Below are positions 1-12,340 of a stretch of 12,926 bases of DNA, one piece after another. The position numbers and the translations under genes were made by a program. Source of the stretch: Naegleria gruberi (taxonomy: Eukaryota); the NCBI GenBank assembly GCA_000004985.1, contig GG738999.1; one strand, written 5' to 3'. How positions within the stretch are numbered: position 1 is the first letter of the stretch; each line of letters begins with the position of its first letter. The notes below the pieces were generated by a model. The model saw only the letters and a list, made by a program, of their open reading frames with translations. It was not told the origin of the DNA and did not search any database.

Positions 1-1775
1 ATTTCCGAACAAACAGAGCTATTATATGAGGCAATTGAATAACAAGTAAAAAAATCTGTACAGTATTGACCAGACCATCCAGCATTACAGGAACAATTAT
101 CATAAGAAGTGCAGTTACCATATCCATTACACACATTTGGTTCGTTAAAGTGTATTTCGTTACAAGTTGGGAATTGACACTGATCACCAAAACCTGAACT
201 ACAAAGGCAACTGCCATCTTCTTGACATTGACCATGACCATTACAAACAGTCTCACTATTACTAGCAATTCCATAACAATAATTTGGATCTGTTAAATAA
301 GCAACGAATCCATTTGATGCTGTTGATACAGAAACATTCTTACCATCAAATTTTGGATTTAAGCCAAGGGTTCCAAAAATTGATATGAATTGATTATTAT
401 TATTCTTAACTCCATAAGAATAATCATCTTTTGAGCCTCCTTCTTTAATAGCCCAAACAGCATCTAAAGTAGTTCTTTTGAAAGCAGCAATCACAATATC
501 CCGTCCTCCAGTACTTGTCAACTTGGTGGAACCAATTTGAATTGTACCTGCAAAGTGACCAGAAACGATTATTTCTTGATCATTTTTGTTGGTATCTATT
601 CCTGTAAATACTACATCACCATCAATAACTAGATTTTTAGCTTCAGTAGGGGTGTTAGTACCATTCTTCAAGTAGAACATTAAAAATGATTTTCTTGATT
701 CAGTTGGTATGACCACAGAACCAACTATGTAGATTTCAACTTTTCCTTGAGCCGTAATTATTTTCATATCGTATACATCAACATCGTTTTGATAATTTGC
801 AATTGTAGTGGTGTGTTTTACTTTGAAAGGTTGGATATTGGTTGAGTTAATTTCATAATAACTAAAGAAGGGAGTTTGATGGATGGCCGATATTTGATCA
901 CCACCAAATGTAATTTCTCCATGAAAACTACCACATACCCAAAAGGAAGAAGCAGATGACTTGATAACCTTTTTTATGACTGAAGTTCCAGTCCCTCCTT
1001 GTTGTAGAACTTGCTTTTTTCCCAATGTCATTGAATCAAGAGAGACAGTGACAAGAGCAGCAAAAGGAGTCAAGTCACACTGAGTTGGAAGAGTCAACAC
1101 GGACTTATCTTCAAAGGTTAATATGTCAGGATTCTCCTGTGAGTTAGAGCATTCAGCGTAACCAACTACAATTAATGTATTTTCTATTTTCTGAATGTTG
1201 TCAGCTAAACTTGTTATACTACTCCATGCAACGAACTTGTCTGCGGAATGTACAACATAAACACCAATGGCTAGTTGTGCTGGATCTACGCATAATCTCA
1301 GAATGAATGATCCTGGTGGAAATGTTATCTTCTGTTCAAACTGAGTGATCTCTACCGAGCCTGCATTTCTAACAGTAACAAAAGGCCCGGTTACTGATGC
1401 AGTCGGTGAGAATATTTCTAATTGTTTTGATGAATAGATACATTCCTTTGCAATAATTTCATTTGGGGGACCATACCATGCATACCATACCAAACACACA
1501 AAGAAGGACGGATTCAACCCATCCAATTTGGTCTTTTCATTAAAGAAGATTGTTCCTGATTGAAAACCATTGAAAATACCCCAGTAACCGCTGTAACCAA
1601 AATAGTTTGGATAAGAATCAAACAAAGTCCTGAAATTATCTTCAGTTCCAACAGTAGATACAACTCCTATGACTGGCTTACTCGCCTCAATGCTGTGCTG
1701 AGTACATAAGCAATACCACAATACAATAATCATCAAGGATGCAATTGTTGCTGTCCTTCCCGGTACTATTGCCAT
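1..1775 (-). CDS. Partial CDS with a complete 5' end (ATG at 1775) and a 3' end beyond the left window edge. Secreted protein: signal peptide, then SBBP-like beta-propeller repeats, then C-terminal tenascin-type EGF-like cysteine repeats.
   Basis: Manual reverse-complement translation from ATG (complement of 1773-1775) down to position 1 gives 591 sense codons with no TAA, TAG or TGA. The nearest in-frame upstream stop is at 1869-1871 (tca on the + strand), so 1775 is the first ATG. A run of nine A sits directly 5' of the ATG on the coding strand. The N-terminus MAIVPGRTATIASLMIIVLWYCLCTQHSIEA has a basic n-region, a hydrophobic core and an AxA-like cleavage site. The central part has repeated V.G.F.G..FG and GGRDIVIAAFKR..LDAVWAIKEGGSKDDYSYGV motifs that resemble SBBP/beta-propeller repeats, and a KNNNNQF asparagine run. 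The last ~90 residues hold two full modules (CNGHGQCQEDGSCLCSSGFGDQC, CNGYGNCTSYDNCSCNAGWSGQYC) and the start of a third, matching the tenascin-type EGF spacing C-x-G-x-G-x-C-x4-C-x-C-x2-G-[FWY]-x-G-x2-C. GC is visibly higher than in the flanking repeat DNA. The ORF is probably missing from the supplied track because it has no stop inside the window. Confidence 0.85.
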   Translation of the reverse strand, partial: MAIVPGRTATIASLMIIVLWYCLCTQHSIEASKPVIGVVSTVGTEDNFRTLFDSYPNYFGYSGYWGIFNGFQSGTIFFNEKTKLDGLNPSFFVCLVWYAWYGPPNEIIAKECIYSSKQLEIFSPTASVTGPFVTVRNAGSVEITQFEQKITFPPGSFILRLCVDPAQLAIGVYVVHSADKFVAWSSITSLADNIQKIENTLIVVGYAECSNSQENPDILTFEDKSVLTLPTQCDLTPFAALVTVSLDSMTLGKKQVLQQGGTGTSVIKKVIKSSASSFWVCGSFHGEITFGGDQISAIHQTPFFSYYEINSTNIQPFKVKHTTTIANYQNDVDVYDMKIITAQGKVEIYIVGSVVIPTESRKSFLMFYLKNGTNTPTEAKNLVIDGDVVFTGIDTNKNDQEIIVSGHFAGTIQIGSTKLTSTGGRDIVIAAFKRTTLDAVWAIKEGGSKDDYSYGVKNNNNQFISIFGTLGLNPKFDGKNVSVSTASNGFVAYLTDPNYCYGIASNSETVCNGHGQCQEDGSCLCSSGFGDQCQFPTCNEIHFNEPNVCNGYGNCTSYDNCSCNAGWSGQYCTDFFTCYSIASYNSSVCSE

Positions 1776-1960: not shown

Positions 1961-2503
1961 TCGTGCGGATGTATTTGCAAAGAAAGCAATGTATGTCGTT
2001 GTGTTTGACGACATATACTTGGGGTTTGGTTATCGTTTCGTACTCATTGGATCTTTATTATTACTGAAATACATAATCAAAGATATACATCATTAAATAG
2101 GTAACAATCTCAGCTATCCAGTGGGCTATAGATTGTGTATAGTTTCTTATCTAATTATTGAGATAATCAGCAATTCCTCACTCAATATATTGCGATTTTA
2201 CTATTCCTAGGGAAAGGTAAAAGAATGATCAGAAATTGATCAATAAAAAATATATGTCATACTAGAGATGATTTGCTATCGATTGGTGTTTCAACTTTTG
2301 GATTTTACTAAGTAATTATTGAATTATCACCGATTAAATATTTAATTATTCTTGTTGGAAATCCTTGCTGGTAATTAAAGAGAGTTGATTCATTCTGTCT
2401 TGGTTGTATGGAGGTGAGACTTGCGGACGCTCTTAAATTGTCGGTTGGAAAAGTAACATACAAAAAAAATGTTGTGATGTCTCCTCTCTCTTCCTCATTC
2501 AAT

Positions 2504-2569
2504 CATCTCATCATCATCTCATCATCATATCATCATCATATCATCAGCATATCATCAGCATATCATCAG
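2504..2569. repeat. 11-bp tandem minisatellite, six units: catctcatcat x2, catatcatcat x1, catatcatcag x3.
   Basis: Direct reading gives perfect 11-nt phasing from 2504 to 2569, with two point variants separating three unit types. Confidence 0.9.
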
Positions 2570-2723
2570 GAGTTGTTTCATAATAATTTTAAAAATATAT
2601 ATTGATTGGAATTATTTGGAAGATGATGTTTCGGAATTGGAATAATATTTATTTGGAAGTTATTATAATGGTGGAGGTGTGGTGCCTTTGGCACTCACTT
2701 CCACCAAGTTGCAAAATTAATTG

Positions 2724-2773
2724 NNNNNNNNNNNNNNNNNNNNNNNNNNNNNNNNNNNNNNNNNNNNNNNNNN
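2724..2773. other. Assembly gap of 50 N.
   Basis: Run of n characters. Confidence 1.
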
Positions 2774-3097
2774 ACTGGGGAGAAAATATTTTACAAACGT
2801 AACCAAGTGCAATTACATTTCCCATTATGTGGGTTTGGTTCTACGAACCTCGGATACCTCTTACTCCAATCTCTTATTGATTTAAGATTTTGAAATTGTT
2901 TATTGTTGATACGAATCAGAAGCTTCTTATTGTGACAACACTTGATAGAAGAATGGGAAAGTGGTTGCATTAATTCAACATATTGAAAGTGAACAAGGTT
3001 CTCATCTCAAGATTTGGAACTCTTCTTCATGAAGAGGAGGTTATTGGGTGGTGACTAGAGAGAAACATTTCCTTGTAGCTTTTCTACTAGTAAATGA

Positions 3098-3260
3098 TTA
3101 ATTGACCAAGATGTTGACCTATAATATGGAAACACAATAAAATTCAATAATACTGATAAATACAGTAGTGAATATGAATGGTAATCATAAATCACTGAAA
3201 AAATCATGATTGGATCCATTTTGAGACTTTTGGAAGTCAACTTGGATGGCAATAGGGGAG
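3098..3260 (+). repeat. Dispersed repeat, copy 1 (family also at 12174-12340).
   Basis: taattgaccaagatgttgacctataatatggaaacac...ggatccattttgagacttttggaagtcaacttggatgg aligns collinearly with 12174-12340 (taattgaccaagatattgagccatactatggaaacac...ggatccacattcatactgtgggaagtcaacttgtgtg). Identity by eye is roughly 70%, with indels. Confidence 0.6.
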
Positions 3261-3885
3261 CTTTTGATGTGGTTAACACTTTTAAAGGGATCTGAATATT
3301 TTATTAGATAATATATGTCATCGTTTTACTTTATCACTAAATGTTGAATATCATGATGTTATGACCTATATTTCCAATTTGCGAAATGTTGCAATGTCAA
3401 TGTTTAATTGAAATATTGCCATCATACCAATAATTGATTATATATTATAAAACTGATATTATACACTATAATTGATATATATATGAATATATAATTGAAA
3501 GATTTGGTTTTAGACATTTATTAATGACGTGGGTAGTTCACTAAGGTAGTAACTTTGTCATGTGACATCTATCTAAGATGATATTGAAATCATTCCAAAA
3601 TTGATTCGATGAGAGTATTTGATGATTATAACTTGGTAGTATTGAATTGGTGTTGATTATTACCATTCATGACATGTAAGAATGTTACCTTTTTGTCAAT
3701 TAGGACAGTAGCTTGACAGATAGTCCAATTATATAGATATTGATTTGTATCACTCAAATACGTTATGAACATCAATTATAAGAGTATTTGTATGATATTC
3801 TATCTTGTTGAACATCTTGATATTGACTTGTCATATATCATGAGTAGTTAGTGACATGGTTAAATGGCATGAATACTGAATGATG

Positions 3886-3935
3886 NNNNNNNNNNNNNNN
3901 NNNNNNNNNNNNNNNNNNNNNNNNNNNNNNNNNNN
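3886..3935. other. Assembly gap of 50 N (a single n also at 4012).
   Basis: Run of n characters. The gap abuts the start of a repeat copy. Confidence 1.
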
Positions 3936-4486
3936 GAATTCTATATCATTATATATCATCTACATCATGTTGGTAAAGTTTCAATAGGTGGTCCTTTTTC
4001 AAGATTTCATCNCTTTTCATCAAAGTAGACCATGTGTGATTGAGGGAAGAAATCTCTAAATATGAAAGTTAAAATAAATTTGATATTCGATGTATACTCA
4101 TCAAATGGAACATTTTCATATCAGGATTTAATATGTTTTGATGAGAAACTCAAAAGTTATTGTTGACCTATTGTACCTCACAACTTCCCTTTTTACTTGA
4201 TACTTTTATACCTACAGACTTGAACTTTTGAAATTTCATGTGAACCTAATGATGAATACTGTTAATGATGATATAAACTATATAATCTCATTAAAGGATT
4301 TTGAAATTATCATTCTTCCTATGGTTTCATTTATGAAATTTTAATCTGACATTATTTACAAAGTTAATATTTTATAAATTGAAAAACTAAATATACCACG
4401 TTATTCTACTCATCATTTCCAATCGAATGATATAAAATTTAATGATATTTGAATAAGTTTATAATTTTGGGCTAGGATTAGAGTTG
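3936..4486 (+). repeat. Satellite-family block S2, copy 1 (paralog at 6566-7010). Its left end is hidden by the gap.
   Basis: gaattctatatca...ggtaaagtttcaataggtggtccttt.tcaagatttc...gaccatgtgtg.ttgagggaagaaatctctaaatatg...ctcattaaaggattttgaaattatcattcttc.tatggtttcatt...tctgacattatttacaaagttaatattttataaattgaaaaactaaatata...tttgggctagg is collinear with 6566-7010 at about 85-90% identity. The one exception is an internal ~85-bp segment that is inverted between the copies. Confidence 0.8.
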
Positions 4487-4794
4487 TTTTGATTTGTTAC
4501 TTCGGTGGCACCATGGTCTTTATGATCTAATATAGAGTCTTTAAGTGAATCTTGGGCTTTTGGAAAGGTTTTTCAGTAAAGTTTTAAAAAAAGTATATAC
4601 TTTCTATCTAGATATCGAGATTTGGTGTATTTGTTGTTTGCGTTGTTATTTGGAAAGTGGTAAAGATTTCGATATTCTTGGATTCTTAGATTCGGTTTCC
4701 ATTCGAAATTGATTGAAGATTCGCTAAGATTCGAATCTTTTTCCGCAAATAAGAATCTTTACCGGTATGAGATTGAATATTCAATTAGCATAGG

Positions 4795-4830
4795 TTTTTA
4801 GGTTTAGATTCTTAGGTTTTCGGACAAATA
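4795..4830 (+). repeat. Weak, degenerate telomere-like tract (ggtttttaggtttagattcttaggtttt).
   Basis: TTTAGG/GGTTT-like units, G-rich on the + strand. It is homologous to part of the stronger tract at 6991-7104, and a ~300-bp insertion of gattc-rich DNA (about 4500-4790) lies in between. Confidence 0.3.
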
Positions 4831-4964
4831 AATTTAACACTACAAGAAAGACAAGTAAGAAAGCTGCTCTATTTTGGCGTATAATTTTTAAAATTACTTT
4901 TCAAAGTAAATCGATTTTATCTACGTTAAAATATTGTGTTCAATTATTATATGGATTGGTTGCA

Positions 4965-5852
4965 ACTTTAAGATATTGATCTATGAATATGAAACTGTTC
5001 CAGATTGTTATCCACATAAAGAGGAGTGTATTCATATTTTACACTAATATGATATTTTGCAAAATGAATGGGATGGAGTGTGATCTTTGTGATGAAAGCT
5101 GACTTTTTGGAAGAATGATATTATTATCATACTGAATATAATTCTAACAGACTGTAAATGATACCATATAATTAATAAAGTGATTTAATATATATGGTAA
5201 AGTTATATAATGATTGAACCTACTTTCATTGAGATAGAGAGTTCACTAGGATATAAATACTGTTGACATTGAACATGAACCGATTGGTTGAATGATAGTA
5301 TCATGAATTGTTTCTAAACTTGTTTATATATACTTAAATGATGTCTAGATTGTGTGATATCAATTTTAGATTTATTGCACGTAAATTGAGTGATTTGGAG
5401 TATAATCTATGATATCATGTCAAAAGTCCATAATAAAGTGATAGAGTTGACAACAGGACATTTACTTAACCGATATTCATGAAATTGATACCATATACTA
5501 ATTAGAGTGTCTACATATCATGATTTTAATTTCAGTGAAAATGGAGTTGTTTCTATCTTTCAGATTTCCATCCATTCCATTGAATTACCACCATGTACTA
5601 TCTACCGGATGTATTTCTTGAAATGAAAATATATAATTTGAAGAAAGTCCACTTTATTTGAGATGTTAAACATGATAGTATCATTTATTTTGAGATTGGT
5701 AACTTTCCCTATAGTGTAATCCTTAATTGTATTAATTGACTAAAAGAGGTCAAGGAGAGATTTCAAAACATAAAATAAATGATATTTTCGAGATGTACTA
5801 TCGATTTCCAATCGATTGATATGTATTTTGTTGATTGAGGATGTGGTTCTCT
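4965..5852 (+). repeat. Higher-order unit S1, copy 1 (about three ~300-bp monomers; paralog at 10640-11526).
   Basis: Collinear alignment with 10640-11526 over ~890 bp at roughly 85% identity, for example gaaactgttccagattgtt / gaaactttctcagattgtt, agtgtctacata.catgat, gaagaaagtccactttatttgagatgt, gactaaaagaggtcaaggagagatttcaaaacataaaataaat, tccaatcgattgatatgtattttgttgattgaggatgt.gttctct. Internally it splits into ~300-bp subunits that each begin with a tt(t)ca(g/t)tga.a...gga(g/t)...ttc motif near 5227, 5533 and 5831. Confidence 0.8.
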
Positions 5853-6565
5853 ATATTCAAGATTTCCTCCTTATCCTCCCAAGTCAACCTTGATAAATCA
5901 CTCTTTACCTTACTGAATTATGGAATATTTACCAAAATGTCTAAAAACTGAATCATATACATTATTAGAGATATGGAACATGATTATATGATTTAATTTG
6001 AGATTGGTAACTTGGCTGATTCACTTGTTCATTTGAGGGAGAGTTTACCACCATTTAGATATTAGAGATATTTCCAATTAGAATGAATGATATTTTCGAT
6101 GACTACTCATCATTTGCAACATTTTCATATGTGTTTTATTGACTGGAGTGATGTTTTTGATATCTTGATTTTCACCTTTCAATCCTTAAAGTCAACCTTA
6201 AGATATCAACCTTTACCTTACTATATTGTCAAATTACATTTTAAAACTCTAAAATTGAATTCTATTACATTATTTGAGTTGTTAAACATGATGGAAGTGT
6301 TTCATAGAGAGGTCATTTTCCAGATTTTCATCCATGTCCATAGTTGACTAGATGGTATGAAAGGGATGAAATCTTGATTATGAAAGTTAAAATAAACTTG
6401 ATATTCAATCTCTACACATCTAATGGAGCATGTACATGTGTAATTTGCTGATTGAAGTGATGTTTTTGATTGACTTGATCTGACTTGTCTTTCCTTTCAG
6501 TCAACTTTGTAAAATCAACATTTACTTTCCTATGGTACCATTTCTGATTCTTATGATATGAAATT
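5853..6565 (+). repeat. Degenerate tandem monomers of the same ~300-bp satellite family, linking S1 copy 1 to S2 copy 2.
   Basis: Monomer-start motifs ttgattgaggatgtggttctct (5831), ttgactggagtgatgtttttgat (6129) and ttgctgattgaagtgatgtttttgat (6445) give spacings of 298 and 316 bp. Shared internal motifs include caagatttcc.cc, agtcaacctt, gaaattgaattctat, tttgag.tgttaaacatgat and gagattggtaactt. Confidence 0.55.
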
Positions 6566-7010
6566 GAATTCTATATCACTATAGATCATATAAATCATTT
6601 TGGTAAAGTTTCAATAGGTGGTCCTTTATCAAGATTTCCACCTTTTCATCATAGTTGACCATGTGTGGTTGAGGGAAGAAATCTCTAAATATGGATGTGA
6701 AAATAAACTTTCTCATCAAAGCATATTATATCCTGATATGAAAATGTTCCATTTGATGAGTAAACATCGAATATCAAATTTATTTTGACATTTATATTAA
6801 TGTTGTTAGGGAAGATATATACTATATAATCTCATTAAAGGATTTTGAAATTATCATTCTTCGTATGGTTTCATTTTATAGTTTTTAATCTGACATTATT
6901 TACAAAGTTAATATTTTATAAATTGAAAAACTAAATATAATACATTGTTCTACTCATCATTTACAATCGAATGATATAATATTCAATAATTTGGGCTAGG
7001 GTTTGAACTT
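6566..7010 (+). repeat. Satellite-family block S2, copy 2.
   Basis: See 3936-4486. A third partial match to the variable segment lies at 6378-6440. Confidence 0.8.
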
Positions 7011-7104
7011 TGAAACATTGGGTCTGGTATTTCAACTTTAGGTTCAAAGGTTTAGATTTTTAGGCTTGGGTTTTTAGGCTTTGGGTTGGTGGGGTTTGGG
7101 TGAG
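6991..7104 (+). repeat. Degenerate interstitial telomere-like tract (tagggttt, ggtttag, tttttaggc, gggtttttaggc, tttgggttggtggggtttgggtgag).
   Basis: Clustered G3T2-3 and TTTAGG-like units, G-rich on the + strand. The tract ends exactly where duplicated unit A begins. Confidence 0.5.
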
Positions 7105-8558
7105 TTTTATACACTTTCATACAATAGAGTGATATTGAAATGTACCCTTTGATATTTCTGGATGGGTAGCATGATTTAGTGATGATTCCGACAATAAAAA
7201 TCATGTATTGTTCATATAATTATCAAGATATTGTATAATTTATTAAATATAAAGTGGGTAATATTGAATATTCTTTGTAGGAGCGGAAGCACTTACTCTT
7301 GTCAGTTGGAGTCAGTACTGTATTAAGGTTCATTTAAGGAATCTTAAAAAAATACAATAACAACTCACCTACATCAATATCATCAAGTTATCATCTATAT
7401 TGAATATGGAGCAACAGCAAGAATGTATGGAGTTGATTCAACATGATTATTGGATTGGAGAGATGGCAAAAATATTGCTATCATTGTATTTGTCAAGTTG
7501 GAAGTACCCTCAGGATCATCAGCAAGGTTTCCTCTTCTCTTCTTGTTTGAGAGAGGTTTTTCATCAACAAGATGGTCATCTTCTTCATTGGAATGGTTGC
7601 TTTATTATTAAGGACTGAGAGTAGCGTTTTTAGATTTATTTTGATGAAATAAATCACAATTTATTACGCACAAAACATCAAGAACAACAAGAACAATGAT
7701 ACACCATCATCAATCAGTGAATTGGCCATCATCATTATTGTATAATTTCTTGGAATTTATTGGATTAATAGTAATTTATGGATTATTTGGTGGAATTACT
7801 ATCCTATTGAAGATGGAACATCAGCAACATCATCAAGATGATCTTCAATTTGGATAGTATTGTTTTCGGAGTGGTTTCACTCTTTTTGTGGGCTCTTTCA
7901 ACATACCATCATCCATCATCAGAATGGTCATCATCTTGTTGAGGGGAATATGTTCAACCTTGTTTTGGAAGGTAGAATATCGTACCACCACTCTACTCTC
8001 CTATTTTGATTAGATTGGTGGAGGTGCCACCACCTATTCATACTCTACATCAGTTGAATCTTCCCTCCATCATTTGGTGAGGGACCAACTTCTCCCTTCC
8101 ATATTGTTTAATAAATTATTGTTATTATCATATAATGATACAATTCTTGTTGTTGTTTGTTGTTAATTGTTGTTGTTAATAGTAACCGACAATTCCCCCT
8201 TAATAGTCATACAACCACTTGGTTATTCATATAAAGCATTTCTAGAAATTAAAAGCTATAGCACTGTTGGTTCAGTGGTTGTATGTTGGAGCGTCAATTA
8301 AGGGACTAGTGATCGATTCAAGGTGATTTTACTAACTTATTCATTTTTACCACCTTATTTTTTTAGATCTTCCTTAATACTTGACAATTTTAAAAGATAT
8401 TGATATCACATATACAATACTACATATAAACAACTCTATGTCAATTTCAATTGATTTAGTCAAGTATTCATTGAGAAAGAGTATGATCTGTGACATGATG
8501 TATTGACAACTTTACAAATATTGATTTAAACAATATGGTTATCTAGAAGAGTCTTATA
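7076..8558 (+). repeat. Duplicated ~1.5 kb unit, copy A (right end lost in the gap at 8559).
   Basis: About 99% identical to 9058-10553. The offset is 1982 bp at the left and grows to 1995 through a +3 (CTT) indel at 7537/9519, a +9 indel in the CAA run at 7690/9672, and a +1 indel at 7866/9848. Substitutions include gattagattgg vs gattggattgg and ggtgccaccacctattc vs ggtgtcaccacctgttc. Confidence 0.9.
8261..8332 (+). pseudogene. tRNA-like fragment (degenerate; possibly a tRNA-derived or SINE-like head) inside unit A.
   Basis: gcactgttggttcagtggttgtatg resembles the 5' acceptor and D-arm of eukaryotic tRNA-Gly(GCC), GCATTGGTGGTTCAGTGGTAGAAT. The downstream gatcgattcaagg resembles a T-loop (GGTTCGATTCC). 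No complementary 3' acceptor strand or convincing anticodon stem is present, so it is not an intact tRNA. Confidence 0.3.
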
Positions 8559-8608
8559 NNNNNNNNNNNNNNNNNNNNNNNNNNNNNNNNNNNNNNNNNN
8601 NNNNNNNN
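8559..8608. other. Assembly gap of 50 N.
   Basis: Run of n characters. It truncates copy A of the duplicated unit. Confidence 1.
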
Positions 8609-9054
8609 GACAGTCACATGGTTTTGGTGATTTTATCCACCTCTTTCTAGACAATTAAATTTAAAAATATCAAATGTTCTATTTATTATATAATAATTAT
8701 CTACATAATTAGTTTTGACTGAATCGGTCTAGAAAAAAAGTTATGTTTAAAAAACTATTTCAACTTTAATATTTATTTTCTCTTTCATTTTTAAGAATTT
8801 TTAATTTTTGATACCCTAGAAAAATTCTAATTTAAAAATACTATATTTCATATATTTTTTTAAAAAAATAAGGTTGGGTTTGGAAATACATACTCTTTGA
8901 TTATTCAATGAAAAACTACTTAACCATTCATTATGATATCTTACAAACTTGTTCTATACATTTAGGAGGAGCTACCCTGAAAGGATGACATCTTTAAATC
9001 AAATATTCATCGAACTATAAGGCACAGGTTTGAAAGACAAATATTGAAAGTTAG

Positions 9055-9087
9055 AAAAGGGTTTGGGTTGGTGGGGTTTGGGTGAGT
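9055..9087 (+). repeat. Telomere-like G-rich head of duplicated unit B (aaagggtttgggttggtggggtttgggtgag).
   Basis: GGGTTT, GGGTT and GGGGTTT units, G-rich on the + strand. The same sequence heads unit A. Confidence 0.55.
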
Positions 9088-10553
9088 TTTATACACTTTC
9101 ATACAATAGAGTGATATTGAAATGTACCCTTTGATATTTCTGGATGGGTAGCATGATTTAGTGATGATTCCGACAATAAAAATCATGTATTGTTCATATA
9201 ATTATCAAGATATTGTATAATTTATTAAATATAAAGTGGGTAATATTGAATATTCTTTGTAGGAGCGGAAGCACTTACTCTTGTCAGTTGGAGTCAGTAC
9301 TGTATTAAGGTTCATTTAAGGAATCTTAAAAAAATACAATAACAACTCACCTACATCAATATCATCAAGTTATCATCTATATTGAATATGGAGCAACAGC
9401 AAGAATGTATGGAGTTGATTCAACATGATTATTGGATTGGAGAGATGGCAAAAATATTGCTATCATTGTATTTGTCAAGTTGGAAGTACCCTCAGGATCA
9501 TCAGCAAGGTTTCCTCTTCTTCTCTTCTTGTTTGAGAGAGGTTTTTCATCAACAAGATGGTCATCTTCTTCATTGGAATGGTTGCTTTATTATTAAGGAC
9601 TGAGAGTAGCGTTTTTAGATTTATTTTGATGAAATAAATCACAATTTATTACGCACAAAACATCAAGAACAACAAGAACAACAACAATGCTGATACACCA
9701 TCATCAATCAGTGAATTGGCCATCATCATTATTGTATAATTTCTTGGAATTTATTGGATTAATAGTAATTTATGGATTATTTGGTGGAATTACTATCCTA
9801 TTGAAGATGGAACATCAGCAACATCATCAAGATGATCTTCAATTTGGATAGTATTGTTTTCAGGAGTGGTTTCACTCTTTTTGTGGGCTCTTTCAACATA
9901 CCATCATCCATCATCAGAATGGTCATCATCTTGTTGAGGGGAATATGTTCAACCTTGTTTTGGAAGGTAGAATATCGTACCACCACTCTACTCTCCTATT
10001 TTGATTGGATTGGTGGAGGTGTCACCACCTGTTCATACTCTACATCAGTTGAATCTTCCCTCCATCATTTGGTGAGGGACCAACTTCTCCCTTCCATATT
10101 GTTTAATAAATTATTGTTATTATCATATAATGATACAATTCTTGTTGTTGTTTGTTGTTAATTGTTGTTGTTAATAGTAACCGACAATTCCCCCTTAATA
10201 GTCATACAACCACTTGGTTATTCATATAAAGCATTTCTAGAAATTAAAAGCTATAGCACTGTTGGTTCAGTGGTTGTATGTTGGAGCGTCAATTAAGGGA
10301 CTAGTGATCGATTCAAGGTGATTTTACTAACTTATTCATTTTTACCACCTTATTTTTTTAGATCTTCCTTAATACTTGACAATTTTAAAAGATATTGATA
10401 TCACATATACAATACTACATATAAACAACTCTATGTCAATTTCAATTGATTTAGTCAAGTATTCATTGAGAAAGAGTATGATCTGTGACATGATGTATTG
10501 ACAACTTTACAAATATTGATTTAAACAATATGGTTATCTAGAAGAGTCTTATT
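9058..10553 (+). repeat. Duplicated ~1.5 kb unit, copy B.
   Basis: See copy A. Downstream of 10553 copy B runs into DNA unrelated to the sequence that follows A's gap (8609-9058), so the pair is not a simple head-to-tail tandem. Confidence 0.9.
10256..10327 (+). pseudogene. tRNA-like fragment, copy in unit B.
   Basis: Identical to 8261-8332 at an offset of 1995. Confidence 0.3.
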
Positions 10554-10639
10554 AATTTGTAATAAATATACTATATTTCAATTTTCAATTGTTGACTTGA
10601 TGTACTTAATTGACTTGTCTATTCTAAGGTTACTTAGTT

Positions 10640-11526
10640 GACTTGAAGATACTGAGCCATGAATTTGAAACTTTCTCAGATTGTTCTCCTCATCAAGAGG
10701 AGTGTATTCGTATTTGATACTAGTATGATATTTTGTAAACTGACTGAGATGGAGTGTAATCTCTTTTTTGAAATGTGATATTTTGAAAGATTGTTATTAT
10801 TATCATATTGAATTCAATTCTAAAACTATGAAATTGATACCAGATGTATAATAGTGTGACTAAACGTATTGGGTAAAGTTACAGAATGAATGGAATAACT
10901 TTCACTGAGATGGAGTGTTCACTAGGATATATATAATGTTGATATTGAACATTTACTGATTAATTTTATGAAAATAGTTTGAAATGTTTCTTAACTATTG
11001 TAGATGTATTTAATTGATATATAGACTATGTGGTATCAATTCTAGACTTGTTATATGTAAAATGAGTGATTTGGAGTATAATCTATGATATCATGTCAAA
11101 TATCTATAGTAAATTGATAGAGTTGACACCTCGACATCTACTGAACCAATATTTATGAAATTGATACCACATACTAATTAGAGTGTCTACATACCATGAT
11201 ATCAATTTCAGTGAAATTGGAGTTGTTTCTGGACCCTTCAGATTTCCATTCTCCTGACAAATCAGCATGTACTATCTACTGGATGTATTTCTTGAAATGA
11301 AAACATATAATTTGAAGAAAGTCCACTTTATTTGAGATGTAGGACACGATATTATCATTTATTATGAGATTGGTAACTTTTCCTATAGTGTCATCCTTAA
11401 TTGTCTTAATTGACTAAAAGAGGTCAAGGAGAGATTTCAAAACATAAAATAAATTATATTTTCGAGATTTACTATTGATTTCCAATCGATTGATATGTAT
11501 TTTGTTGATTGAGGATGTTGTTCTCT
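10640..11526 (+). repeat. Higher-order unit S1, copy 2.
   Basis: See 4965-5852. After ttgattgaggatgttgttctct the homology with copy 1 stops abruptly, and a G-rich telomere-like tract follows. Confidence 0.8.
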
Positions 11527-11564
11527 GGGGTTGGGGGTTGGGGTTGGGTTTGGGTTTGGGTATG
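11527..11564 (+). repeat. Interstitial telomere-like tract: ggggtt gggggtt ggggtt gggttt gggttt gggtatgg.
   Basis: Five to six consecutive G3-5T2-3 units are read directly from the sequence. The tract sits exactly at the breakpoint where S1 copy 2 diverges from S1 copy 1 (5852/11526). Confidence 0.7.
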
Positions 11565-12173
11565 GCGAAAACCTATTCTCATAAAATGAACCACTAATAT
11601 TGGCTATCCAGTTCTTATATATGTATTACTATATAAAATAATCTATCTATTCTGTAATACAGGTGAAAAAACTCCCCGTAGTTATTGAGATAATCAAAAA
11701 TGGTCAACTCAAAAATTCCTAGTATATCTATTATCTCTGCGACGAGAACGTTCCGGGTTATGATTCACTCAAATATCAATCTATATGAGTATTGGAAGAA
11801 ATGATAGAAAATACTAATTTTTTTAATTCGCCGTTCCCGAGATAATTGAGTCCTAAAGTGACCCCATGGGTTGAACCAACCTTGGGTCTGACAAAGTTGA
11901 AAATTTCAAAGTTGGGCCAGAATGAAACTTTTGATATATTGTAGATATATTTATGAATAGATGATATTATGAATTAATCTAGTTGAATCGGTGTATTTAA
12001 TAAATTACAACATGTCTTAAAATAAACTTTTCAACATTTATTGTACTATTATATGAATGTTATTAGAATCATCACCAATCTCATATATATGATGTATAAT
12101 GATGATATCTACCTTATAGAATTGTTGGAAATATAATATATGATATCCTTAGTATACTGTACTCATTCTACCT

Positions 12174-12340
12174 TAATTGACCAAGATATTGAGCCATACT
12201 ATGGAAACACTATACCAATTTATTAAACTTGTTAATATTGTAGTAAATATCAATTATAATCATATATAATTGAAATAATCATTATTGGATCCACATTCAT
12301 ACTGTGGGAAGTCAACTTGTGTGAAATTGACAATACTGGT
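12174..12340 (+). repeat. Dispersed repeat, copy 2 (see 3098-3260).
   Basis: Collinear similarity to 3098-3260. Confidence 0.6.

Follow-up and report, generated by a model that had tools for sequence, protein, structure and literature searches.

Telomere-type tracts at repeat-block junctions in an unplaced scaffold of Naegleria gruberi

The window analysed here is an entire unplaced scaffold of 12,926 bp (GG738999.1) from the draft assembly of Naegleria gruberi NEG-M. Two tracts in this scaffold, at 11527-11564 and 6990-7104, are clearly telomere-derived and non-random, and both are G-rich on the + strand. The tracts very probably represent telomere-derived sequences that are located at the junctions of repeat blocks. 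The additional proposal that the scaffold is subtelomeric, with the chromosome terminus to the right, is given an even chance. The two strong tracts would then be interstitial telomeric sequences (ITSs), i.e. relics of former chromosome ends that became buried at block junctions. Their position at homology breakpoints is stronger evidence for this interpretation than their polarity, on which an earlier note, made from the letters of the sequence alone, had relied.

Telomere-type tracts and their strand

For N. gruberi, TTTGGG has been put forward as the candidate telomeric repeat (Fulneckova et al. 2013, PMC3622300). In that study, candidate repeats were judged by their position and orientation at the scaffold ends of genome assemblies, and the need for experimental confirmation of such candidates is stressed. 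Our literature search on the telomeric repeat and the subtelomeres of Naegleria retrieved this statement only.

The score of a tract ("array score") was obtained by local alignment of sliding 40-nt windows with perfect arrays, either (TTTGGG)n or (TTGGGG)n. For comparison, the expected numbers of unit runs were estimated from block-wise dinucleotide shuffles, in which the local strand skew was kept, and the tract scores were compared with a background of same-length segments drawn from both strands. A strict unit was defined as T2-4G3-5, and relaxed units were counted separately. The strongest tracts and one copy are the following:

11527-11564, + strand: best interstitial telomere-type tract, as judged from unit runs, array score, and identity to the TTTGGG motif
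6990-7104, + strand: composite telomere-like tract, with a degenerate leader (6990-7056) and a near-canonical part (7057-7104)
9055-9087, + strand: telomere-type tract on the left border of block B2 (see below), a copy of 7073-7104

On the + strand, the array score reaches 30/40 at 11526-11565, up to 21 at 7046-7105, and 19 at 9046-9090, and weaker peaks of 12-13 are present at 4461-4505 and 6966-7030. The best window of the minus strand has a score of 10. The motif GGGTT occurs 18 times on the + strand versus once on the minus strand. For GGGTT(T)GGG the respective values are eight and zero, with 0.2 occurrences expected on the + strand from the shuffles. Strict unit runs are confined to 11531-11560, and relaxed runs of at least three units are found only there and at 7057-7089, compared with shuffle expectations of 0.05 for the + strand and 0.03 for the minus strand.

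Additional, weaker tracts had been listed in the earlier note or were found in this analysis:

4462-4490, + strand: degenerate homologue of 6988-7015, reading TTTTGGGCTAGGATTAGAG…; 0.27% of the background segments score as well
4795-4830, + strand: T/AGG-rich stretch with a TRF score of 32 and 66% matches
8866-8882, + strand: GGTTGGGTTTGG in unique DNA with a guanine-plus-cytosine (GC) content of 20%, a weak hint in the earlier note
2019-2031, + strand: mini-tract TTGGGGTTTGGTT, 245 bp upstream of the ATG of the gene described below and directly to the right of an 8-bp hairpin

Two of them, 4795-4830 and 8866-8882, are indistinguishable from background: 2.4% and 3.0% of the background segments, respectively, score at least equally, and both are absent from the top array-score windows. 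All other tracts are equalled by at most 0.3% of the background segments. The stretch at 4466-4485 is similar to 6990-7009 and lies inside a direct repeat (3936-4469 and 6566-7012), so that 4462-4490 is a weak relic that is not independent of the tract at 6990-7104. Within the same direct repeat, 4059-4148 and 6709-6798 (90 bp) are 93% reverse-complementary, i.e. they form a small inversion.

The mini-tract at 2019-2031 is missing from the list of the earlier note. It could represent the innermost relic, or it could have arisen by chance; for two-unit runs on the + strand, 1.5-2 are expected from the shuffles. To its left, within 1992-2031 and about 220-245 bp upstream of the start codon, lies the perfect 8-bp hairpin TATGTCGT-TGTGTTTG-ACGACATA, which may belong to the promoter region, mark a relic junction, or be present by coincidence.

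Low-complexity, G/T-rich sequence that arose by chance on a skewed strand, or an artefactual assembly in which telomere reads were joined to unrelated sequence, would account for the two listed tracts at background level. The G/T skew of the + strand, the three 50-N gaps of the scaffold, and the presence of a 98.9%-identical tandem duplicate across one of these gaps are compatible with such an origin. However, the two strong tracts are far outside both the shuffle and the genomic background, they are situated in contiguous sequence hundreds of bp away from the gaps, and they coincide with homology breakpoints to the base. We therefore consider this explanation most unlikely.

The six tracts listed in the earlier note do share one strand, as had been claimed. 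They are reduced to two strong independent loci, 11527-11564 and 6990-7104, and at most one or two marginal ones, because 9055-9087 and 4466-4485 are copies. The assertion that all tracts are G-rich on the + strand is borne out for the two strong tracts; two of the listed stretches are at background level. The earlier note had also named tracts of opposite polarity nearby as a check. None is present on the minus strand of the window, i.e. there is no C-rich tract on the + strand, for which the shuffles predict only 0.03-0.8 occurrences. The + strand is skewed towards G over C and towards T over A over most of 2000-7500 and 10500-12000. Because less than one opposite tract is expected by chance and the + strand is G/T-skewed, the uniform polarity is statistically weak when taken alone.

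Two further classes were considered and rejected. A functional terminal telomere does not apply, because every tract is internal and none exceeds 115 bp, and the scaffold ends in a gene (left) and in satellite-like DNA (right). A scar from telomeres fused head-to-head was rejected in view of the lack of opposite-polarity tracts in the window.

Homology breakpoints at the two strong tracts

The two strong tracts are embedded in a series of repeat blocks. The satellite monomers and the segmental duplication that the earlier note had described are real, as are the assembly gaps. The blocks are the following:

4882-5852, + strand: block C1, diverged units of ~325 bp that lead into a 308-bp satellite
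5572-6792, + strand: 308-bp satellite, four tandem monomers, diverged (~64% identity between neighbours)
3936-4144: partial fifth copy of the satellite, a profile match
7076-8558, + strand: block B1, duplicated element of 1.5 kb without detectable coding capacity, which runs into the gap at 8559-8608
9058-10552, + strand: block B2, 98.9% identical to B1, abutting block C2
10553-11526, + strand: block C2, 82% identical to C1
11565-12926, + strand: sequence distal to the tract at 11527-11564, with satellite-like pieces and two blocks that are collinear with 2152-2205 and 3098-3244

The tract at 11527-11564 has the sequence GGGGTTGGGGGTTGGGGTTGGGTTTGGGTTTGGGTATG and is composed of the units (GGGGTT)(GGGGGTT)(GGGGTT)(GGGTTT)(GGGTTT)GGGTATG(G). 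Positions 11546-11560, i.e. (GGGTTT)2GGG, match the candidate repeat TTTGGG. The homology between C1 and C2 is firm from about 4960/10640 and rises to ~95% identity over the last 70 bp, up to …GTTCTCT. It stops at 11526|11527. Beyond this breakpoint C1 continues into the next satellite monomer (5853 onwards), C2 continues into GGGGTTGGGGG…, and the sequence from 11565 onwards has no relationship to that which follows C1. A satellite profile, a hidden Markov model of which only the first iteration was used because further iteration drifted into the coding region, matches 11246-11526 only over model positions 2-282 of 308. The truncation of this match at 282/308 and the end of the homology at 11526 show that the monomer is broken exactly where the tract starts. 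Neither a bacterial promoter/terminator scan nor DNA folding of the tract gave useful information.

A sharply bounded tract of this kind could also have been inserted by telomerase at an internal double-strand break ("short ITS"), with no involvement of a chromosome end. Such telomerase-mediated insertions are documented in primates and rodents (Nergadze et al. 2007, PMC2246262). The tract at 11527 resembles the short ITSs of double-strand-break repair in its small size (38 bp), its precise boundaries, and its direct attachment to non-telomeric sequence, and it starts without a G/T-rich seed. However, such an insertion requires that the two flanks adjoin each other wherever the tract is missing. 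This is not so in the paralogous "empty" copy, because C1 leads into the next monomer at 5853, and the distal flank from 11565 onwards is foreign. A simultaneous deletion could account for the non-contiguous flanks. The 115-bp graded tract at 6990-7104 would also be left unexplained by this route. This route thus appears quite improbable, and burial of a former chromosome end is the preferred interpretation of the breakpoint at 11526|11527.

At the second strong tract, the leader (6990-7056) reads TTTGGGCTAGGGTTTGAAC…TTTAGG…, and the near-canonical part (7057-7104) reads …GGCTTTGGGTTGGTGGGGTTTGGGTGAG. The array score climbs from 12 to 21 from left to right across 6966-7105. This is the gradient that is expected of a telomere with its terminus to the right, and it is seen at this one locus only. 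The last ~30 nt of the tract form the left edge of block B1. The sequence of 7073-7104, with its irregular TTGGTGGGG and its terminal TGAG, recurs unchanged at 9055-9087. The motif GGGTTTGGG, found at 7092-7100, 9059-9067, and 9074-9082, matches the candidate repeat TTTGGG. B1 and B2 can be aligned from 7073/9055, i.e. within ~3 bp of the left edge of the tract, and their left flanks are unrelated. Two copies of block B are present in the window, and their 5′-ends are hidden by the gap at 8559-8608. Because the irregularities of the tract are common to both, the copies are DNA duplicates and not the result of two separate attachments; the tract was copied together with block B.

The stretches 11679-11732 and 12173-12319 are collinear with 2152-2205 and 3098-3244, respectively, at similar distances to the right of the tracts at 11527 and 2019. 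Judged from these two collinear blocks in the sequence, a shared unit of "tract + element A" that heads rightwards from both tracts is only suggestive. The ~115 bp of A1 and A2 that directly follow the two tracts show no significant similarity (z = 1.0).

Blocks B, and perhaps A, could be telomere-associated mobile or non-autonomous retroelements, the minus-strand 3′-ends of which carry telomere-complementary repeats and attach to G-overhangs, comparable to telomere-specific elements of the Penelope-like/terminon, HeT-A/TART, or SART/TRAS type; the tracts would then be part of the elements. This would be in agreement with the tract being the exact left edge of B in both copies, and with the minus-strand location of the more protein-like, acidic frame fragments of B, the 3′-end of which points towards the tract. 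Such an orientation is expected of elements that are primed from the G-overhang, as reportedly described by Gladyshev & Arkhipova 2007. However, in none of its six frames does block B contain a significant Pfam domain, including a reverse transcriptase or gag, and its conceptual peptides have no protein homologue even at E <= 10. The B copies also lack a poly(A) tail, terminal repeats, and a target-site duplication. Given that the two copies are DNA duplicates, and that A1 and A2 lack significant similarity over the 115 bp next to the tracts, we regard an origin by retroelement attachment as very unlikely.

Several additional observations concern block B and its surroundings. The protein-like fragments are found on the minus strand at 7400-8100 and 9380-10100 in shifting frames, e.g. 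SNHSNEEDDHLVDEKPLSNKKRRGNLADDPEG and QIEDHLDDVADVPSSIG, and the GC content of the block (33-35%) is above that of its surroundings. Block B may be a decayed gene, although the homologue search was negative. At 8250-8320 and 10245-10315 words resembling the D-arm and the T-arm of a transfer RNA (tRNA) are present (GGTTCAGTGGT … GATCGATTC); ARAGORN and Rfam are negative at these positions. The 450 bp that separate the gap on the right of B1 from the beginning of B2 (8609-9057) are unique and, with a GC content of ~20%, represent the most AT-rich part of the window.

The gene at the left end and the gene-free remainder

Outside the repeat blocks the scaffold has the following features:

1-1775, minus strand: 5′-part of an intronless gene, XP_002668614.1 (partial), which runs off the left end of the scaffold
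2724-2773, 3886-3935, 4012, and 8559-8608: assembly gaps of N, three of which are 50-N gaps

The sole long open reading frame (ORF) of the scaffold runs on the minus strand from 1775 to 1, comprises 591 codons that are open throughout in the standard code, and is 100% identical to XP_002668614.1 / EFC35870.1, with the database title "predicted protein, partial [Naegleria gruberi]". A ciliate origin of the scaffold, at which the mixture of TTGGGG and TTTGGG units might hint, was rejected on account of this open frame and this identity. The N-terminus of the protein resembles a signal peptide, the body contains repeats, and EGF domains are present where the visible part stops on the C-terminal side. 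The gene is cut by the scaffold end and is probably much longer than the visible part. A full HMMER search identified two N. gruberi paralogues, i.e. a protein of 1,854 aa on a 507-kb scaffold (64% identity) and a protein of 240 aa on a 782-kb scaffold (62% identity). Residues ~390-500 have multiple matching stretches in more than 100 database proteins, and thus represent a recurring repeat motif. A word-index search retrieved only the protein itself, with no homologue of the N-terminal 500 aa. The minus-strand location of the gene is in agreement with the earlier statement that the secreted-protein gene is transcribed away from the right end. Upstream of the gene, at 2502-2568, a clean 11-nt microsatellite is present, (ATCATATCATC)6, with 96% identity.

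Searches for ORFs, Pfam domains, and protein homologues detected no further gene over the 11 kb on its right side, as would be expected if this gene were the last one before the chromosome end, as the earlier note had proposed. The longest ORF in this region has at most 125 codons. The reading frames contain 46-111 stop codons per 0.8-1.6 thousand codons, and the region is thus strongly non-coding. The Pfam search yielded nothing significant for the ten longest other, non-genic ORFs, and two sub-threshold hits were taken as noise. ARAGORN predicted no tRNA genes in the window, and the Rfam search had no credible match, with a single mir-172 hit at E 0.39 and 22.9 bits, compared with a gathering score of 70. 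The N. gruberi genome is gene-dense, and 11 kb without a detected gene is unusual there. Exact-match scans of JGI metagenome contigs with the B junction and a gene 29-mer resulted in 0 hits.

Proposed origin and chromosomal location

The following history would be compatible with these results. A break inside a 308-bp satellite monomer at 11526 may have been capped by telomerase, which would have added TTGGGG and TTTGGG repeats to the 3′-end of the + strand. The capped end may later have gained the sequence from 11565 onwards, by recombination or by break-induced copying from another chromosome end. By this gain of distal sequence the terminal telomere would have become an internal tract. A similar but older relic, with a degenerate proximal and a canonical distal part, would be represented by the tract at 6990-7104, which is followed by block B. 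Its last ~30 nt would have been copied along with B to 9055-10552. As telomerase extends the G-strand 5′ to 3′ towards the terminus, the centromere side would have been to the left, i.e. on the side of the gene, when the tracts were formed.

Comparable arrangements have been described in other organisms. In human and yeast subtelomeres, relic telomeres are characteristically found at block boundaries and usually point towards the terminus, and variant repeats are typical of the proximal regions of telomeres (PMC2323237). The human (TTAGGG)n-like islands at the boundaries of subtelomeric duplicons (Ambrosini et al. 2007, PMC2323237; Flint et al. 1997) resemble the Naegleria tracts in being degenerate, boundary-located, and of one G-strand orientation, in containing variant repeats of the proximal type, and in being surrounded by satellite or low-copy repeats. 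In contrast, the Naegleria unit is TTTGGG/TTGGGG, the tracts have lengths of 30-115 bp versus mostly 150-200 bp in human, the host is a heterolobosean amoeba, and a terminal location is only plausible here. The arrangement of internal tracts in yeast subtelomeres is also similar (PMC6410037). At the X-(TG1-3)-Y′ and Y′-Y′ junctions of yeast, a short internal tract is likewise located at the centromere-proximal edge of a repeated distal element and is copied with it. Unlike Y′, block B has no detectable ORF, helicase-like or other, only two copies are seen, and equivalents of the autonomously replicating sequence (ARS) and the X element are not known. The Athena/terminon Penelope-like elements and HeT-A/TART of Drosophila also abut a G-strand tract in constant orientation; in contrast to these telomere-attached retroelements, block B lacks reverse transcriptase, gag, and poly(A), and independent insertions are not evident.

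Several points weigh against a subtelomeric location with the terminus to the right. The repeat TTTGGG has been proposed on bioinformatic grounds and is not experimentally verified, and the first three units of the tract at 11527 are of the TTGGGG type and not TTTGGG. The uniform polarity is based on about two to three independent events, with P about 0.25-0.5 under random orientation, and the G/T skew of the + strand favours weak G-rich matches on this strand. The scaffold has no placement on any chromosome, and its right end (…GAAATGGAGATATCATCA) consists of satellite-like DNA with no telomere array. The three 50-N gaps and the near-identical tandem duplicate leave room for mis-scaffolding. 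In addition, ITSs and satellite DNA also occur together in the pericentromeric heterochromatin of other organisms (PMC6410037).

The last point leads to an alternative in which the tracts are telomere-derived, but belong to a heterochromatic block in the chromosome interior (pericentromeric or other), and the polarity records old rearrangements instead of a present terminus. The combination of satellite DNA, interstitial telomeric tracts, and no detected genes on an unplaced scaffold would fit such a block, and, to our knowledge, Naegleria centromeres are uncharacterised. Large interstitial telomeric blocks are typical of vertebrate pericentromeres (PMC6410037). The tracts found here, however, are short, boundary-located, and co-oriented, which fits the subtelomeric class better than head-to-head fusion scars or large heterochromatic blocks. 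Moreover, the satellite, with ~64% identity between neighbouring monomers, is unlike a homogenised centromeric array, and an apparently normal gene is present within 2 kb. An internal block is thus unlikely, yet it deserves to be taken seriously. For the subtelomeric location that the earlier note had proposed, the match to TTTGGG, the common strand, the breakpoints, and the lack of detected genes speak in its favour. It is weakened by the small number of tracts, i.e. two to three instead of six, and by the lack of an array at the right end.

It could further be speculated that Naegleria chromosome ends are modular and consist of "tract + element" units, in which B, and perhaps the sequence from 11565 onwards, would be added onto telomeres and copied between ends in a Y′-like or terminon-like manner, with telomerase laying down a mixture of TTGGGG and TTTGGG. 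Paramecium telomeres are a mixture of these two hexamers, i.e. the same two that are mixed in the tract at 11527. Paramecium represents an unrelated lineage, however, and in Naegleria the mixture is found in one 38-bp internal relic only, the TTGGGG units of which could have arisen by post-insertion mutation instead of by a telomerase mix. We regard this modular organisation as rather improbable. If it were true, the scaffold would give the first sequence-level glimpse of such an architecture in a deep-branching excavate.

The general concepts would remain unchanged, because relic telomere tracts at the boundaries of subtelomeric blocks are well known in yeast and humans. The pattern is ordinary and new only for Naegleria, for which none is described in the searchable literature. 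If the subtelomeric location is confirmed, the scaffold would provide the first description of subtelomere structure in a heterolobosean, would strengthen the case for TTTGGG, together with TTGGGG variants, as the telomere repeat of Naegleria, and would serve as an anchor for placing this orphan scaffold in the N. gruberi assembly.

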